A stretch of DNA of 64,000 nucleotides from IMG/VR virus record IMGVR_UViG_2541047715_000004, one strand, 5' to 3'. The translations under genes and the position numbers were made by a program. Numbering within the stretch: the first letter of the stretch is position 1; each line of letters opens with the position of its first letter. Source of the DNA: a virus. Taxonomy: Duplodnaviria; Heunggongvirae; Uroviricota; Caudoviricetes. The notes beneath the pieces were generated by a model, which was not told where the DNA came from, made no database searches, and saw only the letters and a list, made by a program, of their open reading frames with translations. Of the stretch, positions 4,184 through 55,202 are shown piece after piece.

Positions 4184-4567
4184 ATGCTGAACGAGAAACG
4201 TTCTATACAAACTATTCGCGATTGCACGAGTATTATCGAGACTCATGTGCTGAATCAGCACAAGCTTGAAGTACGTAAGCTCAATAATGACGCTATTGAA
4301 CCGGAAGACTCACGCTTCATCGTTACCTTCAAAGACGATGTTGAGCGCGCTGGTGCAAGCGTGAAGCCATTAGCTGAAGCAATTTACCTGAATGGTCGTG
4401 TTCGTTTTGTAGTCAAGCCAGCTAAACAGTACCCTGAGCTGTCTCGTTTTATCGAGGCTTTTTCGGAGGTTATTGAACATTCTATTCGCCGCTTCTTACG
4501 CAATCATGGTAGCATTGTCAGCACGGTTAAGGCTGATGATTCTGCTACAAAATGGCTCCTACACTAG
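4184..4567 (+). CDS. hypothetical protein (first gene of two-gene cassette)
   Basis: 127 aa ORF; overlaps next ORF by 16 nt. Confidence 0.45.
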   Translation: MLNEKRSIQTIRDCTSIIETHVLNQHKLEVRKLNNDAIEPEDSRFIVTFKDDVERAGASVKPLAEAIYLNGRVRFVVKPAKQYPELSRFIEAFSEVIEHSIRRFLRNHGSIVSTVKADDSATKWLLH

Positions 4568-5304
4568 ATAGCGCATATTCAAAAGATCTAAGCGAGTTTC
4601 CTCATAAAGGGGAGACTCGTGTTGTTCGTTTTGGCTTTCTTATCAATGAAGCCTCCCTCTATAAAATCTCAGAAATTGAAATCATTGAACCAGAAGATGA
4701 CATTTGCCTGTATGTCTCTATGGAACTTGTAGGTGCGCGCGACCAAGGCGACCTGAGCGAATTCATCTTAGATCGAGCGGATGAAGATGCCCCTGAAGAA
4801 GAGATTATCAAAGAGGTGCTCCAGTCCGGGCTTCTGGACGAAAACAAAAATACGATCGCTGGTAGGATAGCTCTGCGTGAATATAGTTTTGTTGAAGACG
4901 GCAATGAGATCGAATGTTACCAGGTAGCCGGTGTCGAAACTGTCAGAGAGCGTCGTCAGCGAGGATTGTGTCACCGTACCTATCTCTTTCTTCTTCATTG
5001 GTATGAGCATTTAGTCTGCGACGATACACAAACCATTCCTGGTGCTAAGATCTGGGCAGGGCCTCTCATGCGAACCGGCGATGTGCGTATATACAATGCC
5101 AAAACAGAAACGTTCGAGGATGTGTTAGGTGAGTACGGGATGGGGAAAGAAACCGGATTTTTGCCGTGGAACAGAGGATTGTTGCTTGATGCAGAGTTAA
5201 GCTCTTGGCTCCCAAACAAAGTGCAAGTTAACGTTCAGAAATTTATCGTACTTATCATCTCCCGCAAAACAAGAACTCCAGTAGGTTTATACCTAAAAGA
5301 TTAA
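4552..5304 (+). CDS. hypothetical protein (second gene of cassette)
   Basis: 250 aa ORF followed by strong intrinsic terminator. Confidence 0.45.
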   Translation: MAPTLDSAYSKDLSEFPHKGETRVVRFGFLINEASLYKISEIEIIEPEDDICLYVSMELVGARDQGDLSEFILDRADEDAPEEEIIKEVLQSGLLDENKNTIAGRIALREYSFVEDGNEIECYQVAGVETVRERRQRGLCHRTYLFLLHWYEHLVCDDTQTIPGAKIWAGPLMRTGDVRIYNAKTETFEDVLGEYGMGKETGFLPWNRGLLLDAELSSWLPNKVQVNVQKFIVLIISRKTRTPVGLYLKD

Positions 5305-5309
5305 AAATC

Positions 5310-5334
5310 AGGCGACTTTGGTCGCCTTTTTTGT
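5310..5334 (+). terminator. rho-independent terminator
   Basis: AGGCGAC-TTTG-GTCGCCT hairpin followed by TTTTTT. Confidence 0.75.
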
Positions 5335-5480
5335 TAACAGCCATTGATTCTCGCCTAAAAATTCTAAGGCAGCACCTACCATTTAACCTTTACACCACAG
5401 CCGTAGGCATTTAGGCTATATCACATATAAGAAAACAAGTTGTTTCAGACGATAATTATATACGCAAAGGGAACTCTCCA

Positions 5481-6149
5481 ATGACCAAGATCTTTGTGGT
5501 TGGCGGCACAAAGGGCGGGCCTGGCAAATCCACCGTTGCCCAGCAAATTGCCGTTTGCCTGAAAGTCAAAAAGAAGAAGAAGGTTTATATCACTGATATA
5601 GATATTCAGCGCACGACAACAAGCTGGTGTGAAGACCGTCGACAGAACGAAGACCTTGAGCTGATTCCTTTTGCATACGTTCAGGATGACATCATTAAGC
5701 ACCTAAAATCGCTTCAGGGTAGAGCTGAGTTTGTAGTGGTAGATGCTGGTGGCTTCGACTCCGAAATTCAGCGACAAGCGATGCTGATGGCTGACGTTAT
5801 CATTATCCCGCTGCGTCCTAAGCGTCGTGATTTGAAATCTTTACGTGACATCGATCCTATTATCGACAATGTTCGCAATGTAAACGATAAAGTGAAGGTC
5901 CGCGCGGTCATGAACCAGTGCCCGGCTTTGCCATCACAAGTGTCTCGCATTCTGGCGGCTAAAGAGATTGTTGAGACGTTTGGCATCGAGTCTGCGCCAG
6001 TCAATCTATATAACCGCAACGTCTATGATGATGCGGAAGAGTCTGGTCGTTCTATCTTTGAAATGACCGGTAGCGAGCGCGACAAAAAGGCGGAAGCCGA
6101 GTTTGAAGAATTTGTAGATTATCTGTTGAGTCTGGAGGAAGAAGAATAA
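5481..6149 (+). CDS. parA: ParA-family partition ATPase
   Basis: Deviant Walker A GGTKGGPGKST near N-terminus; 222 aa; followed by small RHH-like partner. Confidence 0.85.
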   Translation: MTKIFVVGGTKGGPGKSTVAQQIAVCLKVKKKKKVYITDIDIQRTTTSWCEDRRQNEDLELIPFAYVQDDIIKHLKSLQGRAEFVVVDAGGFDSEIQRQAMLMADVIIIPLRPKRRDLKSLRDIDPIIDNVRNVNDKVKVRAVMNQCPALPSQVSRILAAKEIVETFGIESAPVNLYNRNVYDDAEESGRSIFEMTGSERDKKAEAEFEEFVDYLLSLEEEE

Positions 6150-6508
6150 TGTCCATGAAAATGGGTGACCTAGCAAAGCGCAAAGAGCCTGATGCACCGG
6201 CTAAGAACACAACTCCTTTGCGCCAACCAGTCAGACCACAGGGACGCCCGACTCGTGGCAAAGAGAAAATTAAAAGCCGCACAATGTCACTGGAGGACGA
6301 ATACTTCGAACTGCTGGAGATGATGAAGTTCATCCCTCGCTTCGAGAAGTTCACTCGTTCTGACGTGATTCGAGCAGCCATTTTCCATCTGGCAGAGAAG
6401 TCACCGCAGGAAATCGAGGACATCGTGAAATTGAATGAGGCGATCACCGCTGCCGATGTCACGATGCGTACCGATGAAATTAAACGCGAGTTAATGAAGA
6501 AAGGTTGA
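6149..6508 (+). CDS. small partition DNA-binding protein (ParG/RHH-like)
   Basis: 119 aa; basic N-terminus then RHH-like segment; start overlaps parA stop. Confidence 0.5.
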   Translation: MSMKMGDLAKRKEPDAPAKNTTPLRQPVRPQGRPTRGKEKIKSRTMSLEDEYFELLEMMKFIPRFEKFTRSDVIRAAIFHLAEKSPQEIEDIVKLNEAITAADVTMRTDEIKRELMKKG

Positions 6509-6517
6509 TATAAATCT

Positions 6518-6547
6518 CTAAGGCTGGTCTGCATTGGACAGCCTTAG
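6518..6547. terminator. bidirectional hairpin between convergent genes
   Basis: CTAAGGCTG...CAGCCTTAG inverted repeat between 6508 and 6569. Confidence 0.5.
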
Positions 6548-6568
6548 AAATATTTCGTTCTATGAAAG

Positions 6569-7642
6569 CTATTCGTAGTTAAGCTCACCGAACAGACTGA
6601 ACATCAAGTCACCATCCAAAATTTCAAAGGGCAACTCGACATACTCATCCTTATGTCTCGGAATTGCGTTGCCGTCGTTAGGGGCATTCTTGGTATAACC
6701 TTTTACATGTTTACCGTTTTCTTTTGTATACGGCAGCACGACAATTCGACCGTGATTTTTTGAAATGATAGTTCCTTCTTTCCAGAGCGTATTGCCTCTT
6801 GAGGTGGTTTCGCTTTCGCTAGCAACTTTAACACTCCAACCTACCTGATTTTTGTCCTCAAACCAGAAAACAAAGTTGCCAACAACCAGTACCTTTTGCC
6901 CATTCCTGAGAGCTTCATCCAGCATTCTTTTTACGCTGGCGAGTTGCAGTAACCGGTTAGCACGCGGCAGAAGCATTGAGCGAATAGTCGCTTTTGTTTT
7001 TCCCCAATGTGCAGCACCTGATAAACCAAAACCTCTGGCTATGCGTTCTTGGTAGCAGATCTTCGCTGTCTTAGCTTTGTTGTTATATGAACATTCCCAA
7101 GTGTTAGGAGCAACGAGTTGAAGTGAAACTTGGAATTTGGGAAGAAAAACAAAATGTAAGTAAGGCATCTCGCTTAGCACGTCAAAAAGGGGTTGACGCA
7201 AAGTTTCGTAATCTGGGTTAATTATTAACTCATTTAATGTCACTCGCGGATCGTTGGCGTGTGCCTTAATTGCTTCGTTGAGCATTATATGCTCTTCATC
7301 CATGAGACGTGATTTGGCTTTGAGTGCTTTGTCAACTTTCAAACGCAATGACTTCTTTTGAAACATAGATAGAGGAAGTTTTTCAATGTCAAAGCTCACG
7401 TTTTTATTCAGCTCTAATGCCGCTTTTCTTGCTTCAGGATAGTTATCGTAGTCGTCATCAAAAGCGTGGTTTGGCATACCACGATCAACATATCGCCGAT
7501 ACCAAGCAAGGGTTCCATCATTACGGAGTTTCAGACAGAACATCGACCATTTATTCCGTTCATATTTAGGCTGAGGCCAAAAAGCCAGTTCGGGAAGGCC
7601 ATATCCTGGAAGTCTATTCATGCGCATGGTGACAATATCCAC
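6569..7642 (-). CDS. hypothetical protein (lone minus-strand gene)
   Basis: 357 aa ORF with no motif I recognise; opposite orientation to flanking operons. Confidence 0.5.
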   Translation of the reverse strand: MDIVTMRMNRLPGYGLPELAFWPQPKYERNKWSMFCLKLRNDGTLAWYRRYVDRGMPNHAFDDDYDNYPEARKAALELNKNVSFDIEKLPLSMFQKKSLRLKVDKALKAKSRLMDEEHIMLNEAIKAHANDPRVTLNELIINPDYETLRQPLFDVLSEMPYLHFVFLPKFQVSLQLVAPNTWECSYNNKAKTAKICYQERIARGFGLSGAAHWGKTKATIRSMLLPRANRLLQLASVKRMLDEALRNGQKVLVVGNFVFWFEDKNQVGWSVKVASESETTSRGNTLWKEGTIISKNHGRIVVLPYTKENGKHVKGYTKNAPNDGNAIPRHKDEYVELPFEILDGDLMFSLFGELNYE

Positions 7643-8700: not shown

Positions 8701-10041
8701 ATGACCGAACTTTGCCATACAGGACGCGGGCTGTCCGAAGAGTTTGATGAAGATTTCCAGAACAGACTGACGGCATATTTTTGTCGTGATCACGAGTTTC
8801 TTACTCGTGCGGGAGATCTGGTTGTGCCTAGCCAGTTTGCCAATGCGGCCAATGCCATATTGGTTAATATGGTTTCGGGCTATTACCGTATGTACAAGAG
8901 CGCGCCCTCTTCATCTGCAATTCTGGATATGCTTAAGCGTGCGAAACGCGATAAGACTATCCGTGAGGAACTATTCGCCGATGTTGTTGCTGCGTTTAAG
9001 CGCATTCTTGCAGAAAAATTGTCCGATACCTCGTACATGGTTGACCAGGTATCAACCTTCGCAAAAAGTGTAGCGTTTGATGATGCTCTGATTAAGGCTG
9101 CTGAACTGAAAGAGAAAGGCGACTTTCAGGGGGCGATGGCAATCATGGCCAAGGTTCAGCAGATTGGATCGAACGAAGCGACCGGAATCTATGACTACTA
9201 CACCTCCGCAAGTGAGCGATTGAAAGCGCGTGAATATGAGGCTTCAGAGGAGTATGTACCAAACAGTATTACAACTGGACTCCCTCTTCTCGATAGGTTG
9301 CTGTACCAAAAAGGCTGGGCAAAGCGCGAAATGGTGCTCTTCATGGGGTTCGCTAAATCCGGTAAATCGACCGCAATGGGTGAGTTTTCCATAAACGCAA
9401 CGCTTGCTGGCTACAATGTTCTGTATCTCTCGCTGGAGGTTCACACCACCATTTTATCCGACCGTTTTGATGCAAGATTGTCGGAGACAGAAATGTCCAA
9501 GCTGGTGGAACGGCGCGATGAGGTTCATCGTAAGTTGGCAGAGTTGGGAGCCACGAAGGGGATTGGTAGTTTGTGGGTGGTTGAGCGTCCGTCAGGAAGT
9601 ATGTCACCGGCAGATCTGGACCGTATGCTTAACAGCATGAAAGCCAACGGCATGGTACCTGACATGGTTGTTGTCGACTACGCAGATTTGATGCGTGCCA
9701 GTTATGACCTTCGTGATGATCGCGCCAACATTCGTAGTATCTACACCGATTTACGTGCTCTTTATGACAAGCATAACGTTGCTGGGATCACGGCATCGCA
9801 GACAAACCGTGAAGGTGGCGCGTCAGAAGTTGCCACAATGATGCACGCTGCCGACAACATCGAAAAAGTACGTATTGCTGACCTGGTAATAACGATCAAC
9901 AAAACCGAAGAAGAAGAAGCGAAAGGAGAGGCTCGTCTCTACTTTGCCGGTTCACGTAACCAGCAGGGAGGGATCAGCATTCGCGTTAAACAAAACCTCG
10001 AACAAATGCGCTTCATTGAGCGAATCTTAGACGTTACCTAA
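8701..10041 (+). CDS. DnaB-like replicative DNA helicase
   Basis: Walker A GFAKSGKST, Walker B-like VVVDYADLM, RecA-fold C-terminal domain; 446 aa. Confidence 0.8.
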   Translation: MTELCHTGRGLSEEFDEDFQNRLTAYFCRDHEFLTRAGDLVVPSQFANAANAILVNMVSGYYRMYKSAPSSSAILDMLKRAKRDKTIREELFADVVAAFKRILAEKLSDTSYMVDQVSTFAKSVAFDDALIKAAELKEKGDFQGAMAIMAKVQQIGSNEATGIYDYYTSASERLKAREYEASEEYVPNSITTGLPLLDRLLYQKGWAKREMVLFMGFAKSGKSTAMGEFSINATLAGYNVLYLSLEVHTTILSDRFDARLSETEMSKLVERRDEVHRKLAELGATKGIGSLWVVERPSGSMSPADLDRMLNSMKANGMVPDMVVVDYADLMRASYDLRDDRANIRSIYTDLRALYDKHNVAGITASQTNREGGASEVATMMHAADNIEKVRIADLVITINKTEEEEAKGEARLYFAGSRNQQGGISIRVKQNLEQMRFIERILDVT

Positions 10042-37030: not shown

Positions 37031-37366
37031 ATGAAGGCCATCCCATTCGCGCTGTTGTTCCTTTCTTCGATCGTTGTGGCCGACACCACTGTTTATCAGT
37101 GTGAAATGTCTGTAGCCGACGTTAAGAATGGCGCTCTTACCGACGTCATAAAAGCACCATATGGAGCGATGGTCGTAGACAGCGGCGACCAGTTCTATGT
37201 TGTGCGTGACGATCGAGTGTTGTCATCCCCATATCTCACAAATCGTAATGGCAAATTAACCGGCGTCGGAGAAGACCACTTCGTATACAACAAATACAAG
37301 GGCTTCTATGGCGTTCACGCTTCTCAGCAAAGCTACCTTTTCGATGACTGCAAGGAGGTTGGATAA
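37031..37366 (+). CDS. secreted hypothetical protein
   Basis: N-terminal signal peptide MKAIPFALLFLSSIVVA; preceded by unlisted 59-aa membrane ORF (about 36855..37034) overlapping its start. Confidence 0.45.
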   Translation: MKAIPFALLFLSSIVVADTTVYQCEMSVADVKNGALTDVIKAPYGAMVVDSGDQFYVVRDDRVLSSPYLTNRNGKLTGVGEDHFVYNKYKGFYGVHASQQSYLFDDCKEVG

Positions 37367-37578
37367 TGGCATTAACACTGGCAGGTCTGGAAATCGAGAA
37401 AACAAGCGGATACTGGCGTGCTAAGGGTTTCAAGCAGCCTGGCATTCTTGAGCGTCTGGAACGTGAAGATGGGTATATCGTCCACCAGCGGCGTGAATGG
37501 CGTATGTACGATCCAGAAACAGGAAAACTGACTACAAAAGCCGGAACACTTTGGGGTCTGTTGAAGAAAATACACTAA
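37366..37578 (+). CDS. hypothetical protein
   Basis: 70 aa ORF; hairpin GACTGCGG...CCGCAGTC downstream. Confidence 0.35.
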   Translation: MALTLAGLEIEKTSGYWRAKGFKQPGILERLEREDGYIVHQRREWRMYDPETGKLTTKAGTLWGLLKKIH

Positions 37579-37624
37579 ATGCAAACTGACTGCGGCACGT
37601 TCCGCAGTCATATTTCATAGTCGT

Positions 37625-38157
37625 CACCGCTGACAGCATACACAATCAACTGCCGCTGATAGCATATCGAGAGTCTATCTCACCGCTCACAGCATACTTT
37701 ACTCGATTTTTTACCGCTGACAGCATACTTAAGACATTGCATGAATAATGTGTACCGGTATGGGTATAACCAGAACAAAATTACCGCTGGCAGCATACGA
37801 AGGTCTGACATATGCCATTAATTACCGCTGATAGCATATCCAAACAAAAATTCCTCAATAAAACACCGCTGACAGCATACGTTCTATCAGGGAGCAGCAG
37901 GCAATAAATACCTTTCACTACAAGTAATCAGCGCAATGGGAATAGAATGTTAGTGAGCGCAAACCTATATGGAATGCACTCTTCGAGGTTAGTAACCACT
38001 GGGGAGGTATAAAAGAGCATTGAGTGGTGATAGATGATTTACCGCTCACAGCATACGTTTATCTCACTATACCGCTGGTAGCATATCTTTAACCGTTCAC
38101 AGCATACTTTTCAGAAAAATAGCCGCTGATAGCATACATTTCACCGCTGACAGCATA
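37625..38157. repeat. iteron array (about 12 direct repeats), incA-like control locus downstream of rep
   Basis: Repeats of CCGCTGACAGCATA and close variants (CTGATAGCATA, CTCACAGCATA, CTGGCAGCATA) spaced 20-50 bp, with a repeat-free gap 37880..38040. Confidence 0.8.
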
Positions 38158-39252
38158 TCAAAGCAGTTTGAGACTATTGGAAAGGATCTCAATCATCTTG
38201 ATATTTTCAGGCGTCAAATTCTGCGAAAGTTCGGTTATCTTATTGATAATGTTCTGTTTGGCATCAATTTCCCCGGCTTTCTCATCTGGTTTTTTGGGTT
38301 CGATGTCTTCAGGTTTTGGCGGTGCGACTTTGAGTTTTGGATTGCGGCTGTGAATCTGGATATAGATCGACCGCCCACGCTTAATCTCGCTGTATTCGAG
38401 ATAGCCCAAATCTTGGAGAGCTTTTAAGCCGTTACGTATAGTCTGATTCTGCGAGCTGACATTCCTGCTACTCAAATTGAGTCGCGCACGCAATCGAGCA
38501 AGCGATACCGGCGCAGGCTTGGTTGGAAGACTTTCGATGAAGGTGTACAGAGCCTGTGCTGTTTCTTTGCGTGGTAGCTTATTGATAACCTTTAACTGCA
38601 AAAGAACCTTATGGTCAAAGCGATATAGTTCGGCCAGCTTCGGTTCTGCATAGAACACCACCGTATCTTTCTGCTCGTTGTAGTCCACGCTATTGATGAG
38701 GTGCACCATCAGAAGCGAGATCTTGTTAGAGCCGTCGACGTTCTTTTCTTCATACGTTCTCTGGAAAGACAGAGTTGTACGCATGATCTTCAAAAGACTG
38801 TTTGTAAGCCGGTCGCGGAGTGTTTTGCGGATCTGTGACGATGGATAGCCACAAAACTTCGCAAATTTCGTGATGCTTAACTCGACACGACCATTAGGTT
38901 CGCCGTATTCTGCCAGCGAACGCACAACGCCCACCCACGTTTTGAAATCATGATCCATGTCCAGGCGAGGACCGGTTATCTTGATATCGGAATAGCCTTC
39001 AGAACGGGCTACTTCGAGCTGGACAAGCTCCTTTGAAGCATCGATCTCATTTGGCTTGTTACGTTTACTGTATTTTGTTCCCTTAAGCGTGGGGACGAAC
39101 AACCCCAGTCGCATCAACGCAATTGGTTGGACTGTATTGTTGCTATTAGGGACAAGTTCCCCTGTGTACAATTCAAGGGAACCTTCTTCAAAGTTGTCGA
39201 TGTTATCTTCTACTTCTTTGTTATTTTTACCTTTTTTATTTTTTGTGGACAT
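38158..39252 (-). CDS. repA: iteron-binding plasmid replication initiator (RepA-like)
   Basis: Gene flanked on both sides by direct iterons; start set at MSTKN (ORF extends to 39372 into iterons); no sequence motif recognised, call is from architecture. Confidence 0.65.
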   Translation of the reverse strand: MSTKNKKGKNNKEVEDNIDNFEEGSLELYTGELVPNSNNTVQPIALMRLGLFVPTLKGTKYSKRNKPNEIDASKELVQLEVARSEGYSDIKITGPRLDMDHDFKTWVGVVRSLAEYGEPNGRVELSITKFAKFCGYPSSQIRKTLRDRLTNSLLKIMRTTLSFQRTYEEKNVDGSNKISLLMVHLINSVDYNEQKDTVVFYAEPKLAELYRFDHKVLLQLKVINKLPRKETAQALYTFIESLPTKPAPVSLARLRARLNLSSRNVSSQNQTIRNGLKALQDLGYLEYSEIKRGRSIYIQIHSRNPKLKVAPPKPEDIEPKKPDEKAGEIDAKQNIINKITELSQNLTPENIKMIEILSNSLKLL

Positions 39253-39270
39253 GTGGACACCTTTGTCATT

Positions 39271-39375
39271 CAACCGCTGACAGCATACTTGATTTGCCGC
39301 TGACAGAATACTAAAAACAGTTGGCAGCATACGGTGAACCGCTGACAGACTATCAATTACCGCTGACAGCATACA
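39271..39375. repeat. iteron array (about 5 repeats) upstream of rep, origin-proximal
   Basis: CCGCTGACAGCATA, CCGCTGACAGAATA, GGCAGCATA, CCGCTGACAGACTA, CCGCTGACAGCATA. Confidence 0.8.
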
Positions 39376-39409
39376 TGAACATGACTTCAGACCAGTCGTG
39401 GCGCGGCTT

Positions 39410-39495
39410 ACAGCGATCGGGGATCTTATTTGATCTATATAAGGATCTATCTATGGATCTCTTTATTAGGATCTATCCTGTGGATATGTGAATAA
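39410..39495. promoter_or_regulatory. putative origin elements: GATC cluster and DnaA-box-like site
   Basis: Six GATC sites within about 60 bp in GGATCTAT-type repeats, then CTGTGGATATG (DnaA-box-like). Confidence 0.5.
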
Positions 39496-39573
39496 TTAAA
39501 ACAGGCATTTACTACCTTCGGCGCACCTGGTGGGTTATCGTTGCCTCGGCTAACAATCACAGAAAAATGACAT

Positions 39574-40218
39574 ATGGATCTAAAACGCACGCGCTGGGTT
39601 CGTCGTCTTGAAGACGGCTCCTACACTATCGAATCAAATTCCAACCTGAATAAGCAGAAGTTGCTTTGTGACATCTGCGGTATAGCGGCGAAGTGCCCGA
39701 TCTACGAAACCAGAATTAAACTTGATAAGGCTGGTGTGAATTTTCATTTAAACAGTTGCATCAGGTACGTTCCATTACTCGCATTTCGTAAACCGATCAT
39801 CGGATTGGATGCTCCCTACTTCAACACACTCCGTTCAGGTGTGACGTGGCGAGATCGTTTATCACCAGACAAGCTGATTTGCCTCGTATCCGCAGACACA
39901 GGGAAAATCATCCGTTTTGGGAAAGTAGACAAGGTTTACTCAGGCCCAGTAGACGAAATGTTGCGGAAACACAGCCGGTTTAATCATCTCTGTATGGGTG
40001 GTGAGAAAATCGAGAAAGTAGAAGAAGTGATCCGCAAATCCTACGGACACTTTCTGACCAAAGATAGCCTGCTCACCGCAATCTACATCAGACATGTAAA
40101 ACGTGAGTTCGACCTCGAATACCACAGCGAAGAAGAGCTTAACCTTGTTGACCCACGTCCAAAAGCTGGCGTCATAAGCATAAACGCAGCGCGTAAAAAG
40201 CCCACTGACGCGCTGTAA
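39574..40218 (+). CDS. hypothetical protein
   Basis: 214 aa ORF next to origin. Confidence 0.45.
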   Translation: MDLKRTRWVRRLEDGSYTIESNSNLNKQKLLCDICGIAAKCPIYETRIKLDKAGVNFHLNSCIRYVPLLAFRKPIIGLDAPYFNTLRSGVTWRDRLSPDKLICLVSADTGKIIRFGKVDKVYSGPVDEMLRKHSRFNHLCMGGEKIEKVEEVIRKSYGHFLTKDSLLTAIYIRHVKREFDLEYHSEEELNLVDPRPKAGVISINAARKKPTDAL

Positions 40219-54608: not shown

Positions 54609-55202
54609 ATGATTGCAGCCGAAAAAATCAAACAGCGAAAGCGCGACAACTCTCTTCGTGACCTCTGGAGAACACCTGACTGGCTGTTTTCTGCCATTCA
54701 ACGTTATCTTGGAGTGACATTTGATGTTGACGTTGCCTGCAACAAGGACAATGCGAAGCTGCCTAATTTCATAGGCGTTGAGCGTGATGCTTTGAAATCT
54801 GAATGGGGACAGCCAGGTACAATTGCCTTCCTCAATCCACCCTACTCCAAAATCTCCCCCTGGATTGATGCGGCTATACGTGAGCAGGCTCGCGGAGTTA
54901 CAACAGTGATGCTAATTCCTCAATCCCTCGATACAAAGTGGTATGAGCGTGCAACAGAGTGTGCGAATGAGACGATTATTCTGTCTGGTGGCCGCGTAGC
55001 GTTTGTCGAGCCTGACGTCAATTTGGGTCAGGTAGAAGTAAACATCAACCCCGGTGGCAGTATGCTCGTTGTTTTTCGAGGATTCTGTCAGGACGCTGGG
55101 CACTCTATAAGCAAGATCCCTTTGGACGTCATGAAAAGTCTGGGAGGGTATGATCCTGCGAATGTGATCAGGAAAAAAAGACAATCAAAGAAGGCTGCTT
55201 AG
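54609..55202 (+). CDS. DNA N6-adenine methyltransferase, orphan phage Dam type
   Basis: Catalytic NPPY motif (FLNPPYSKISPW); 197 aa; no adjacent nuclease gene. Confidence 0.7.
   Translation: MIAAEKIKQRKRDNSLRDLWRTPDWLFSAIQRYLGVTFDVDVACNKDNAKLPNFIGVERDALKSEWGQPGTIAFLNPPYSKISPWIDAAIREQARGVTTVMLIPQSLDTKWYERATECANETIILSGGRVAFVEPDVNLGQVEVNINPGGSMLVVFRGFCQDAGHSISKIPLDVMKSLGGYDPANVIRKKRQSKKAA

Follow-up and report, generated by a model that had tools for sequence, protein, structure and literature searches.

A probable plasmid replicon of the P1 oriR-repA-incA family, with its own iterons, in an SSU5-like phage-plasmid of Escherichia coli

The plasmid replicon of phage P1 (oriR-repA-incA) is annotated in AF234172 as a DnaA site, five Dam sites, five incC iterons containing the promoter PrepA, the repA gene and nine incA iterons. 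In mini-F, R6K and Vibrio chromosome 2, iteron-based replicons combine initiation, autorepression, titration and handcuffing (reviewed in PMC6090056). Among phage-plasmids, iterons 3' of repA were reported before in IncpKPHS1 plasmids, where four were counted and the origin core was not described (PMC6735626). In E. coli, plasmids of the pECOH89/p09EL50 kind have been given the type IncFIB(H89-PhagePlasmid), and MW590712 was named as highly similar to plasmids so typed (PMC12838234); pECOH89 and p09EL50 are reported to have RepA proteins with 100% identity (PMC3999498).

Here we describe the locus at 37579-39583 of a 64,000-nucleotide stretch of DNA, referred to below as the window. With a probability of roughly 0.9, and with its function inferred from homology, we read it as the replicon that maintains an SSU5-like E. 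coli phage-plasmid in its plasmid-prophage state, of the theta type, under iteron control and homologous to P1 oriR-repA-incA (RepFIB/P1 RepA family). The kind is well known and this member of it is ordinary, a relative of P1 oriR/repA/incA that carries its own initiator-binding repeats. Its features are listed below by position in the window.

37579..39583, minus strand: whole replicon module, a natural cassette by comparison with pCTX (terminator hairpin, control iterons, rep, origin iterons and origin core)
37587..37610, no strand assigned: G+C-rich hairpin between the iteron array and the convergent upstream operon (ending at 37578), resembling a terminator on either strand; 9-bp stem with 6 GC pairs, also detected as an inverted repeat
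37627..37879, minus strand: distal group of the control (incA-like) array, seven iterons spaced 26, 30, 31, 70, 41 and 41 bp, from a repeat scan
37880..38041, no strand assigned: repeat-free gap of 162 bp inside the control array, with no iteron match
38042..38157, minus strand: proximal group of the control array, five iterons spaced 30, 21, 30 and 21 bp, the last of them stopping one base short of the rep stop codon, from a repeat scan
38158..39252, minus strand: rep, encoding a 364-aa initiator of the RepA/Rep_3 family (Pfam, homology and predicted fold)
39252..39260, minus strand: third DnaA-box-like site, GTGTCCACA, overlapping the rep start codon; two mismatches to TTATCCACA and weak on its own
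39274..39373, minus strand: five origin (incC-like) iterons, spaced 21, 21, 21 and 23 bp in rep sense, from a repeat scan
39374..39414, minus strand: G+C-rich spacer (GCTGTAAGCCGCGCCACGACTGG...), which aligns with the P1 oriR spacer GTTGCAGGCCGCGCCACGTCTGG
39415..39473, minus strand: six GATC (Dam) sites, five in AGATC(C/A) heptamers (rep sense) plus CGATCG, from a site scan; homologues of the five Dam sites annotated in P1 oriR
39479..39495, minus strand: two abutting DnaA-box-like 9-mers, TTATTCACA (39495-39487) and ATATCCACA (39487-39479), aligned with the annotated 18-bp P1 oriR DnaA site TTATCCACATTATCCAC

The P1-like organization proposed in the first-pass annotation was borne out by homology of Rep with P1/P7 RepA (tblastn, 43.5% identity over aa 32-309, E 2e-64), by the order of the elements and by the origin core. 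DnaA boxes, GATC heptamers, G+C-rich spacer, five iterons, rep and a second array starting at the stop codon follow one another as in P1, in which incA iteron 9 begins at the last base of repA, much as the array here abuts the rep stop. The segment comprising the DnaA boxes, GATC sites and spacer is 74.5% identical to P1 oriR over 106 columns, compared with 43% for the iteron part, and the core is conserved in the eight origins that we compared. Origin iterons are spaced nearly as in P1 (21, 21, 21 and 22 bp there), but the repeats themselves are unrelated in sequence and do not align (TATGCTGTCAGCGG here versus ATGTGTGCTGGAGGG in P1). Further differences concern the control array (12 iterons, all direct and split by the 162-bp gap, versus nine in P1, three direct and six inverted), the number of GATC sites (six versus five), the length of Rep (364 aa, with N- and C-terminal extensions, versus 286 aa), the position of the partition genes (an adjacent operon in P1, ParA-like genes 31 kb away here) and the host element, which is an SSU5-like siphovirus whereas P1-like phages are myoviruses.

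The iterons exceed chance expectation by far, and so does the GATC cluster. A scan for CCGCTGACAGCATA with up to three mismatches returned 22 matches across the 64 kb of the window, where 4.62 ± 2.05 were expected; none of 100 shuffles reached 22, and 17 of the matches lie on the plus strand between 37627 and 39373. The rep gene is bracketed by 17 same-strand iterons, five upstream (starting at 39274, 39297, 39318, 39339 and 39360) and 12 downstream (distal starts at 37627, 37653, 37683, 37714, 37784, 37825 and 37866; proximal starts at 38042, 38072, 38093, 38123 and 38144), which is what the first-pass annotation had estimated, with accurate coordinates and counts. Their unit is conserved over 16 bp, (G/A)TATGCTGTCAGCGGT in rep sense, and 16 of the 17 have at most two mismatches. 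The downstream array is direct throughout and runs from the rep stop codon on, each of its copies keeping the 16-bp core with two mismatches or fewer. No CCGCTGACAGCATA match with two or fewer mismatches was found elsewhere in the window, or in bases 1-50000 of p09EL50, the part of the element outside it. A site inside rep (38906-38919, three mismatches) is at chance level and was discarded. In the Klebsiella relative pJN2-26 the 162-bp gap is not conserved, and we found no feature within it; an Rfam scan of 37300-39700 with E up to 1 gave no match, indicating that no known antisense or regulatory RNA lies there.

Beyond the upstream iterons, the six GATC sites that had been noted earlier were recovered within 59 bp, the sole cluster of four or more in the window (Poisson probability about 2e-4 window-wide; one of 2,000 random placements reaches it). 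They adjoin an A+T-rich stretch (GC 0.32 at 39430-39519), and together these are presumably the SeqA/Dam-controlled opening region. The DnaA-box-like site also claimed at first pass is TGTGGATAT at 39479-39487, which reads ATATCCACA on the minus strand; it abuts a second box, TTATTCACA at 39487-39495, that the earlier annotation lacked, and each of the two is one base off TTATCCACA. Relatives have a better box than ours at the position of the start codon (GTATCCACA in pJN2-26, TTATCCACA in JK004 and CTATCCACA in P1).

The gene and strand assigned at first pass to the initiator stood, while its length is 364 aa plus a stop codon, not 365 aa. Rep is 48% identical to SSU5 RepA and 41% to the RepFIB-type RepA of RCS47/SJ46 (tblastn), and it matches the Pfam family Rep3_N (WH1) at 3.9e-9 (37.5 bits against a 22.4-bit cut-off). 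We found 477 homologues, mostly named RepB, RepA or RepFIB, and an alignment of 44 sequences that includes P1, SSU5, JK004 and RCS47 has 51 invariant columns. A search of PDB sequences gave no match to Rep and no NCBIfam model matched it. In the AlphaFold model (core pLDDT 80-92), Rep is predicted to adopt a tandem winged-helix fold (WH1-WH2) of the Rep_3 (PF01051) type, like RepE and RctB; the best PDB matches by Foldseek were RctB domains 2-3 (2e-7), RepE (1e-4) and the MSBI1.176 WH1 domain (9e-4), with TrfA and Pi also matched. To mini-F ori2/RepE, R6K Pi and Vibrio chromosome 2 RctB the likeness is at the level of fold only (12-14% identity), and their origin anatomy differs. The N terminus is disordered and the C terminus consists of a linker and two helices, a tail that most homologues also have, including the initiators of ordinary RepFIB plasmids, and which is therefore not phage-specific.

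We rejected the 404-aa open reading frame from 39372 (the PGAP model) as the true Rep. Its 40 extra codons are iterons read in frame, with ATGCTGTCAGCGG encoding Met-Leu-Ser-Ala at 21-bp spacing, and in P1 RepA and several homologues the start codon comes after the iterons. As only 21 nt separate the last origin iteron from the rep ATG, the rep promoter would have to lie in or upstream of the origin array. A scan for the sigma-70 consensus found no minus-strand promoter for rep, and a PWM scan gave weak candidates only, with 19-bp spacers, the best being TTGATA-N19-TATGCT at 39356-39326.

The layout recurs in five related replicons, and the iteron sequence is particular to each Rep clade: TATGCTGTCAGCGG in the window and Klebsiella pJN2-26, CCACTGTAGAGAG in SSU5 and E. 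coli pCTX, ATGTG(T/C)GCTGGAGGG in P1 and Cronobacter JK004, and GTTGACTATACGCGA in RCS47. The pattern of five origin iterons at 21 bp is common to P1, JK004, RCS47 and pJN2-26, and an array from the rep stop codon on was kept in all six replicons examined. The distal block is inverted in the control arrays of P1, JK004, RCS47 and SSU5, but not in the window. Among the relatives are the Klebsiella SSU5-like phage-plasmids (pKPHS1/pJN2-26, 'IncpKPHS1'), whose Rep is 85% identical and whose iteron and all-direct array are as in the window, although pJN2-26 has eight control iterons against 12 and a different gap sequence. The SSU5/pHCM2/pLF82 type, IncFIB(pLF82-PhagePlasmid), is alike in layout, but its control array contains direct and inverted blocks and its origin core is tandemly duplicated, the rep-proximal copy being without GATC sites. 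Rep is 41-55% identical in RepFIB of IncF plasmids and in P1-like phages such as RCS47, and their origin core and their layout of five plus n iterons are alike; RCS47 differs in its iteron and has a shorter control array of two direct and four inverted copies.

The source element is an SSU5-like phage-plasmid of about 110 kb with 99% identity to p09EL50 and to phage PhiR41_1, and rep with both arrays is likewise 99% identical to p09EL50. From its identity to the pECOH89/p09EL50 type, we assign the rep to the cataloged IncFIB(H89-PhagePlasmid). This rep type is present in 207 PLSDB plasmids and in 119 of 5,426 complete E. coli genomes, with no chromosomal placement: all 183 matches in those genomes are on plasmid records, in line with the earlier claim that the element lives as a plasmid. 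A 721-bp array query matched 120 PLSDB plasmids over at least 80% of its length, MW590712 among them; among the matches listed, 27 at 97.6% identity or more cover the query at full length in one piece, and one further record has an insertion of about 26 bp in the array. PhiR41_1, 99.6% identical, is missing exactly 87 bp, equal to three distal-group iterons, which leaves it nine control iterons. We saw nine only in PhiR41_1, and iteron number as a common polymorphism was not supported.

Comparison with E. coli plasmid pCTX (NZ_CP047004) delimits the module. Identity is 99.4% up to 37595 and at least 97% from 39584 on, divergence begins directly after the stop codon at 37578, and between these flanks pCTX has an SSU5/pLF82-type replicon instead; that type occupies the same slot in E. 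coli phage-plasmids that are otherwise 97-100% identical. Judged by these alignments, the replicon appears to behave as a single exchangeable unit between near-identical elements.

By homology with P1, Rep monomers (364 aa) would bind the five 21-bp-spaced origin iterons (39274-39373) and host DnaA the tandem boxes (39479-39495). After initiation, SeqA would sequester the six hemimethylated GATC sites and block immediate re-initiation. Rep on the origin iterons would also cover its own promoter and repress itself, as suggested by the 21 nt from the last iteron to the ATG; with only weak promoter candidates, autorepression rests on this geometry and on P1. The 12 downstream iterons (37627-38157) would keep copy number low through Rep titration and through handcuffing with origin iterons on their own or a sister copy, and would also cause incompatibility. 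We infer both low copy number and the copy-control role of this array from P1; with 12 copies, all direct, and a 162-bp interruption, the array is unlike that of P1 and may act differently in detail. Iteron sequence and Rep specificity would have diverged jointly from those of P1, SSU5 and RepFIB, the half of the origin that serves host factors having stayed conserved.

Other roles for the repeats were weighed. As type Ib centromeres are typically direct-repeat arrays and the element encodes a small ParA-type ATPase, the repeats might form a parS-like partition centromere bound by a ParB-type protein and not by Rep, the alternative that the first-pass annotation had set against its own reading. 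We regard this as highly improbable, because the ParA-like gene (5481-6149) and its 119-aa partner (6149-6508) are 31 kb away and have no iteron copies; moreover, the repeats lie at the exact positions of the P1 RepA-binding iterons, vary with the Rep clade and swap along with rep, whereas everything else in the element, presumably including the par genes, is shared. Less credible still is a role as prophage attachment sites for the repeats on either side of rep, although the pJN2-26 record (MZ779062) labels two 20-bp copies beside rep attR and attL. That record contains 13 copies, not two, they flank rep only and no prophage, and the element is a circular plasmid, found on no chromosome among the complete E. 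coli genomes searched; the label is an artifact of a repeat-based att finder.

Two further alternatives concern what the arrays and the origin do. The irregular distal spacing (26-70 bp), the 162-bp gap and the SSU5-type relatives in which the second copy of a duplicated origin core has decayed would fit a downstream array with no regulatory role, either a duplicate of the origin iterons in decay or a second origin. We consider this very unlikely: the array has neither DnaA boxes nor a GATC cluster, its core is intact in 12 of 12 copies, and an array at the stop codon recurs in all six replicons and is retained across the 120 PLSDB plasmids. Somewhat less unlikely, though still doubtful, is that Rep and its origin also, or mainly, fire in lytic growth and feed the phage replisome (DnaB-like helicase, DnaE and ligase), so that this would not be a dedicated plasmid replicon. 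The element encodes its own helicase (8701-10041), DnaE and ligase, no separate lytic origin was identified in this analysis, and the two-helix tail of Rep is absent from P1 RepA; against this, the tail is common to ordinary RepFIB initiators, and a 12-iteron negative-control array with Dam sequestration sites is a once-per-cycle, low-copy feature. P1, the closest characterized relative, has a separate lytic replicon. Lytic use would in any case add to the reading as an iteron-controlled plasmid replicon and not exclude it.

The replicon at 37579-39583 opens no new mechanism. Among the records examined, none annotates the iterons or origin, one labels iterons as att, and the PGAP rep start falls inside an iteron; the origin, the control locus and the true start of rep now have base-level coordinates, in a replicon found in about 2% of complete E. 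coli genomes, often with blaCTX-M-15. Work on mini-replicons, incompatibility and curing of SSU5-like phage-plasmids thereby gains a small, defined fragment. More tentatively, the 2.0-kb replicon may be a plug-in specificity cassette, with near-identical SSU5-like E. coli phage-plasmids holding either the H89-type or the pLF82/SSU5-type rep/iteron set in one slot. If so, the swap could use the flanking genes and the conserved DnaA/GATC origin core as recombination anchors and would yield mutually compatible lineages of one phage, and the all-direct 12-iteron control array (nine copies in PhiR41_1) would set a lineage-specific copy number. For P1-type origins more widely, the comparison separates a half that is free to diverge, the iterons and Rep, from a constant half, the DnaA/Dam/spacer core.

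The initiator gene rep lies between two arrays of direct repeats (iterons), as the first-pass annotation had reported from the sequence alone, with accurate coordinates and counts. Searching the 64-kb window for CCGCTGACAGCATA with up to three mismatches gave 22 matches against 4.6 ± 2.1 expected, a number reached by no shuffle; 17 of the 22 are on the plus strand at 37627–39373, and 16 of these 17 bracketing iterons carry at most two mismatches. The rest of the window holds no match with two or fewer mismatches, and neither do bases 1–50000 of p09EL50, a plasmid 99% identical to the window element; this stretch of p09EL50 takes in the remainder of the element. In rep sense (the minus strand), the iterons share a conserved 16-bp unit, (G/A)TATGCTGTCAGCGGT. 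Beyond the five upstream iterons follow, outwards, a spacer, a GATC cluster and two DnaA-box-like 9-mers; the second of these, abutting the first, is the only feature missed earlier.

37627–37879, plus strand, seven distal control iterons
38042–38157, plus strand, five proximal control iterons
38158–39252, minus strand, rep (364 aa)
39274–39373, plus strand, five origin iterons
Upstream of the origin iterons, G+C-rich spacer of 41 bp
39415–39473, six GATC sites within 59 bp
39479–39487, minus strand, DnaA-box-like 9-mer ATATCCACA
39487–39495, minus strand, DnaA-box-like 9-mer TTATTCACA, abutting ATATCCACA

The GATC cluster is the sole one of at least four sites in the window (Poisson expectation ~2e-4 window-wide) and lies in an A+T-rich region (GC 0.32 at 39430–39519). 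Adjoining the DnaA boxes is a 214-aa ORF (39574–40218, plus strand), divergent from rep and conserved in position in the SSU5, Klebsiella and pCTX relatives, whose sole family hint is a sub-threshold ASCH-domain match (E 0.15). An inverted iteron-like site inside rep (38906–38919, minus strand, TATTCTGCCAGCGA, three mismatches) is at chance level in the window; repA of RCS47 likewise contains one (L008, the RCS47 locus, 2053–2067, one mismatch).

Rep has a Pfam Rep3_N match (3.9e-9, above the curated cut-off), which corresponds to the WH1 domain found in iteron-binding initiators. In tblastn comparisons with phage genomes, it was 85% identical to the proteins of Klebsiella SSU5-like phage-plasmids, 48% to SSU5 RepA, 43.5% to P1 and P7 repA (residues 32–309, E 2e-64) and 41% to the RepFIB-type RepA of RCS47 and SJ46; a large protein database lists 477 homologues, most of them under the names of RepB, RepA or RepFIB initiators from Enterobacterales plasmids. 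In the AlphaFold model, built on 40 homologues, residues ~70–305 form a confident core (pLDDT 80–92), with predicted disorder at the N-terminus (1–41) and in a linker (309–328) followed by two C-terminal helices. The closest solved structures to this model are RctB domains 2–3, mini-F RepE, a WH1 domain, TrfA and Pi, each an iteron-binding initiator. P1 RepA lacks the C-terminal tail, which is not peculiar to the window element because most RepFIB-family proteins have one. The 404-aa RefSeq/PGAP model (extension 39253–39372) was rejected: its start ATG falls within the first of the origin iterons, every iteron can be read as ATG-CTG-TCA-GCG (Met-Leu-Ser-Ala) with a 21-bp spacing that leaves the frame open, and the added residues are in all likelihood an artefact of annotation. 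The start at 39252, which gives 364 aa, is preceded by AAAGGTG and agrees with P1 RepA and with several of the homologues.

In the curated P1 record (AF234172), the annotated features in repA sense are a DnaA site of 18 bp, five Dam sites, five incC iterons that bind RepA, are spaced at 21 bp and contain PrepA, then repA and nine incA iterons. Element order in the window is identical and iteron spacing is the same (21, 21, 21, 22/23 bp); the control array stops one base short of the rep stop codon, and in P1 the first incA iteron likewise begins on the last base of repA. In pairwise alignment, the DnaA boxes, GATC heptamers and G+C-rich spacer (TTATTCACA-TATCCACAGGATAGATCC...GATCCCCGATCGCTGTAAGCCGCGCCACGACTGG in the window, TTATCCACATTATCCACTGGATAGATCC...GATCCCTGATCGTTGCAGGCCGCGCCACGTCTGG in P1) match P1 base for base, with 74.5% identity over 106 columns; across the iterons, identity is no more than background (43%). 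Eight origins of the P1/RepFIB family show this core in recognisable form. Judged by sequence, the window origin is homologous to P1 oriR, beyond mere similarity. The chief anatomical departures from P1 are the all-direct orientation and large size of the control array, both shared with the Klebsiella clade.

Iterons and control arrays of the window and its relatives
Window: iteron TATGCTGTCAGCGG; 12 direct, 0 inverted
Klebsiella pJN2-26: iteron TATGCTGTCAGCGG; 8 direct, 0 inverted
SSU5 (iteron also in E. coli pCTX): CCACTGTAGAGAG; ~7 direct, ~8 inverted
P1: iteron ATGTG(T/C)GCTGGAGGG; 3 direct, 6 inverted
Cronobacter JK004: iteron ATGTG(T/C)GCTGGAGGG; 3 direct, 5 inverted
RCS47 (RepFIB): iteron GTTGACTATACGCGA; 2 direct, 4 inverted

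The layout is kept in all relatives examined, while the repeat sequence is specific to each Rep clade, as predicted for repeats bound by the adjacent Rep but not for sites of a host factor or partition protein. A partition centromere is also very unlikely on position: the ParA-like gene and its 119-aa partner lie 31 kb from the replicon and are without such repeats. This locus (5481–6508, plus strand) encodes a small ParA-type ATPase (222 aa; 5481–6149, NCBIfam ParA_partition 1.9e-33, below the model cut-off) and an overlapping 119-aa ORF without a family match, presumed to be a partition pair; no obvious centromere repeats were seen within 4300–7600. The reading of the downstream array as a decayed duplicate origin is contradicted by its conservation: six of six replicons have an array that begins at the stop codon of rep, and 120 PLSDB plasmids match ≥80% of the 721-bp array query; among the matches listed, 27 at ≥97.6% identity cover the full array in one piece. 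The same origin may also serve lytic replication by the phage-encoded replisome, a reading considered less likely. The attR and attL labels on two of 13 iterons in the pJN2-26 record (MZ779062; locus L006, 1378–1397 and 2648–2667) are an artefact.

In phage PhiR41_1 (L002 4128–4571), exactly 87 bp, equivalent to window 37627–37713, are missing, leaving nine control iterons rather than 12; this looks like recombination between iterons, and appears rare because most listed PLSDB plasmids match the whole array in one piece. The SSU5/pLF82-type origin consists of two tandem copies of GATC heptamers, spacer and five iterons, ~360–380 bp apart (SSU5, L005, 1758–1999 and 2140–2396; pCTX, L010, 960–1175 and 1373–1580). 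In the rep-proximal copy, the GATC sites have degenerated to GACC/AACC and reduced DnaA boxes remain. This may represent a duplicated origin with one copy released from Dam control.

The replicon is also a discrete module. Alignment of the window with E. coli pCTX (NZ_CP047004; MOB-suite IncFIB) gives 99.4% identity as far as 37595 and ≥97% from 39584 on, with divergence beginning right after the stop codon at 37578; between the breakpoints, only the origin core (39386–39583) can be aligned, at 57–82%. Both breakpoints are sharp: one falls on the stop codon (37578) that ends a 70-aa gene, the other close to where the 214-aa ORF begins (~39584). The module limits (37579–39583) coincide with the deduced functional replicon. 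The same slot in pCTX holds an SSU5/pLF82-type rep with its iterons, and near-identical E. coli SSU5-like phage-plasmids carry either this or the H89-type replicon of the window; the two are about equally common (129 and 119 of 5,426 complete E. coli genomes), the former always on plasmids. Such a swap is not new in kind, because replicase exchange at a fixed position (IncY versus p0111) has been described in P1-like phage-plasmids (PMC7969092).

By gene content (tail, capsid, terminase, its own DnaE, DnaB-like helicase, ligase, NrdA and ParA-like ATPase), the element is an SSU5-like phage-plasmid. The 2.1 kb around the replicon are 99–100% identical to ~120 circular E. coli/Shigella plasmids of ~110 kb each, for example p09EL50 of E. 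coli O104:H4, and 99.6% identical to the isolated phage PhiR41_1. The proposal that the element lives as a plasmid fits the 119 E. coli assemblies with the rep/iteron segment, where all 183 occurrences fall on plasmid records, with no chromosomal one. According to PMC3999498, pECOH89 and p09EL50 have identical RepA proteins, with just 48% identity between the pECOH89 protein and its pLF82 counterpart, and such plasmids are typed IncFIB(H89-PhagePlasmid) (PMC12838234, which names MW590712, among our PLSDB matches to the array query); the replicon is thus already catalogued at the rep-gene level.

Our direct evidence comprises Rep and origin-core homology to P1, anatomy, co-variation, modularity and plasmid-only location; the mechanism is inferred from P1 (AF234172), other iteron replicons (review PMC6090056) and established knowledge. 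Rep, bound as monomers to the five origin iterons, would act with DnaA on the tandem boxes to open the A+T-rich GATC region, and after firing the hemimethylated GATC sites would be sequestered. Origin-bound Rep would repress its own promoter, which would have to overlap the origin array because the last iteron lies only 21 nt from the ATG; promoter scans gave no confident placement. The twelve downstream iterons would titrate Rep and handcuff origins, limiting copy number and causing incompatibility. The phage encodes a Dam-family N6-adenine methyltransferase (54609–55202, plus strand; Pfam PF05869 2.4e-38, TIGR01712 above cut-off); should this enzyme methylate GATC, it could alter how the six-GATC origin is sequestered. 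P1 has a Dam-like enzyme too.

Rep homology, the aligned origin core and the shared layout support the P1-like iteron replicon in nearly every detail. It is a well-delimited P1/RepFIB iteron replicon in a well-known phage-plasmid family, with its rep already in typing databases. What is added are base-level coordinates of the origin and control locus, a corrected rep start and cassette boundaries, and the finding that conservation with P1 extends to the host-factor half of the origin but not to its specificity half.
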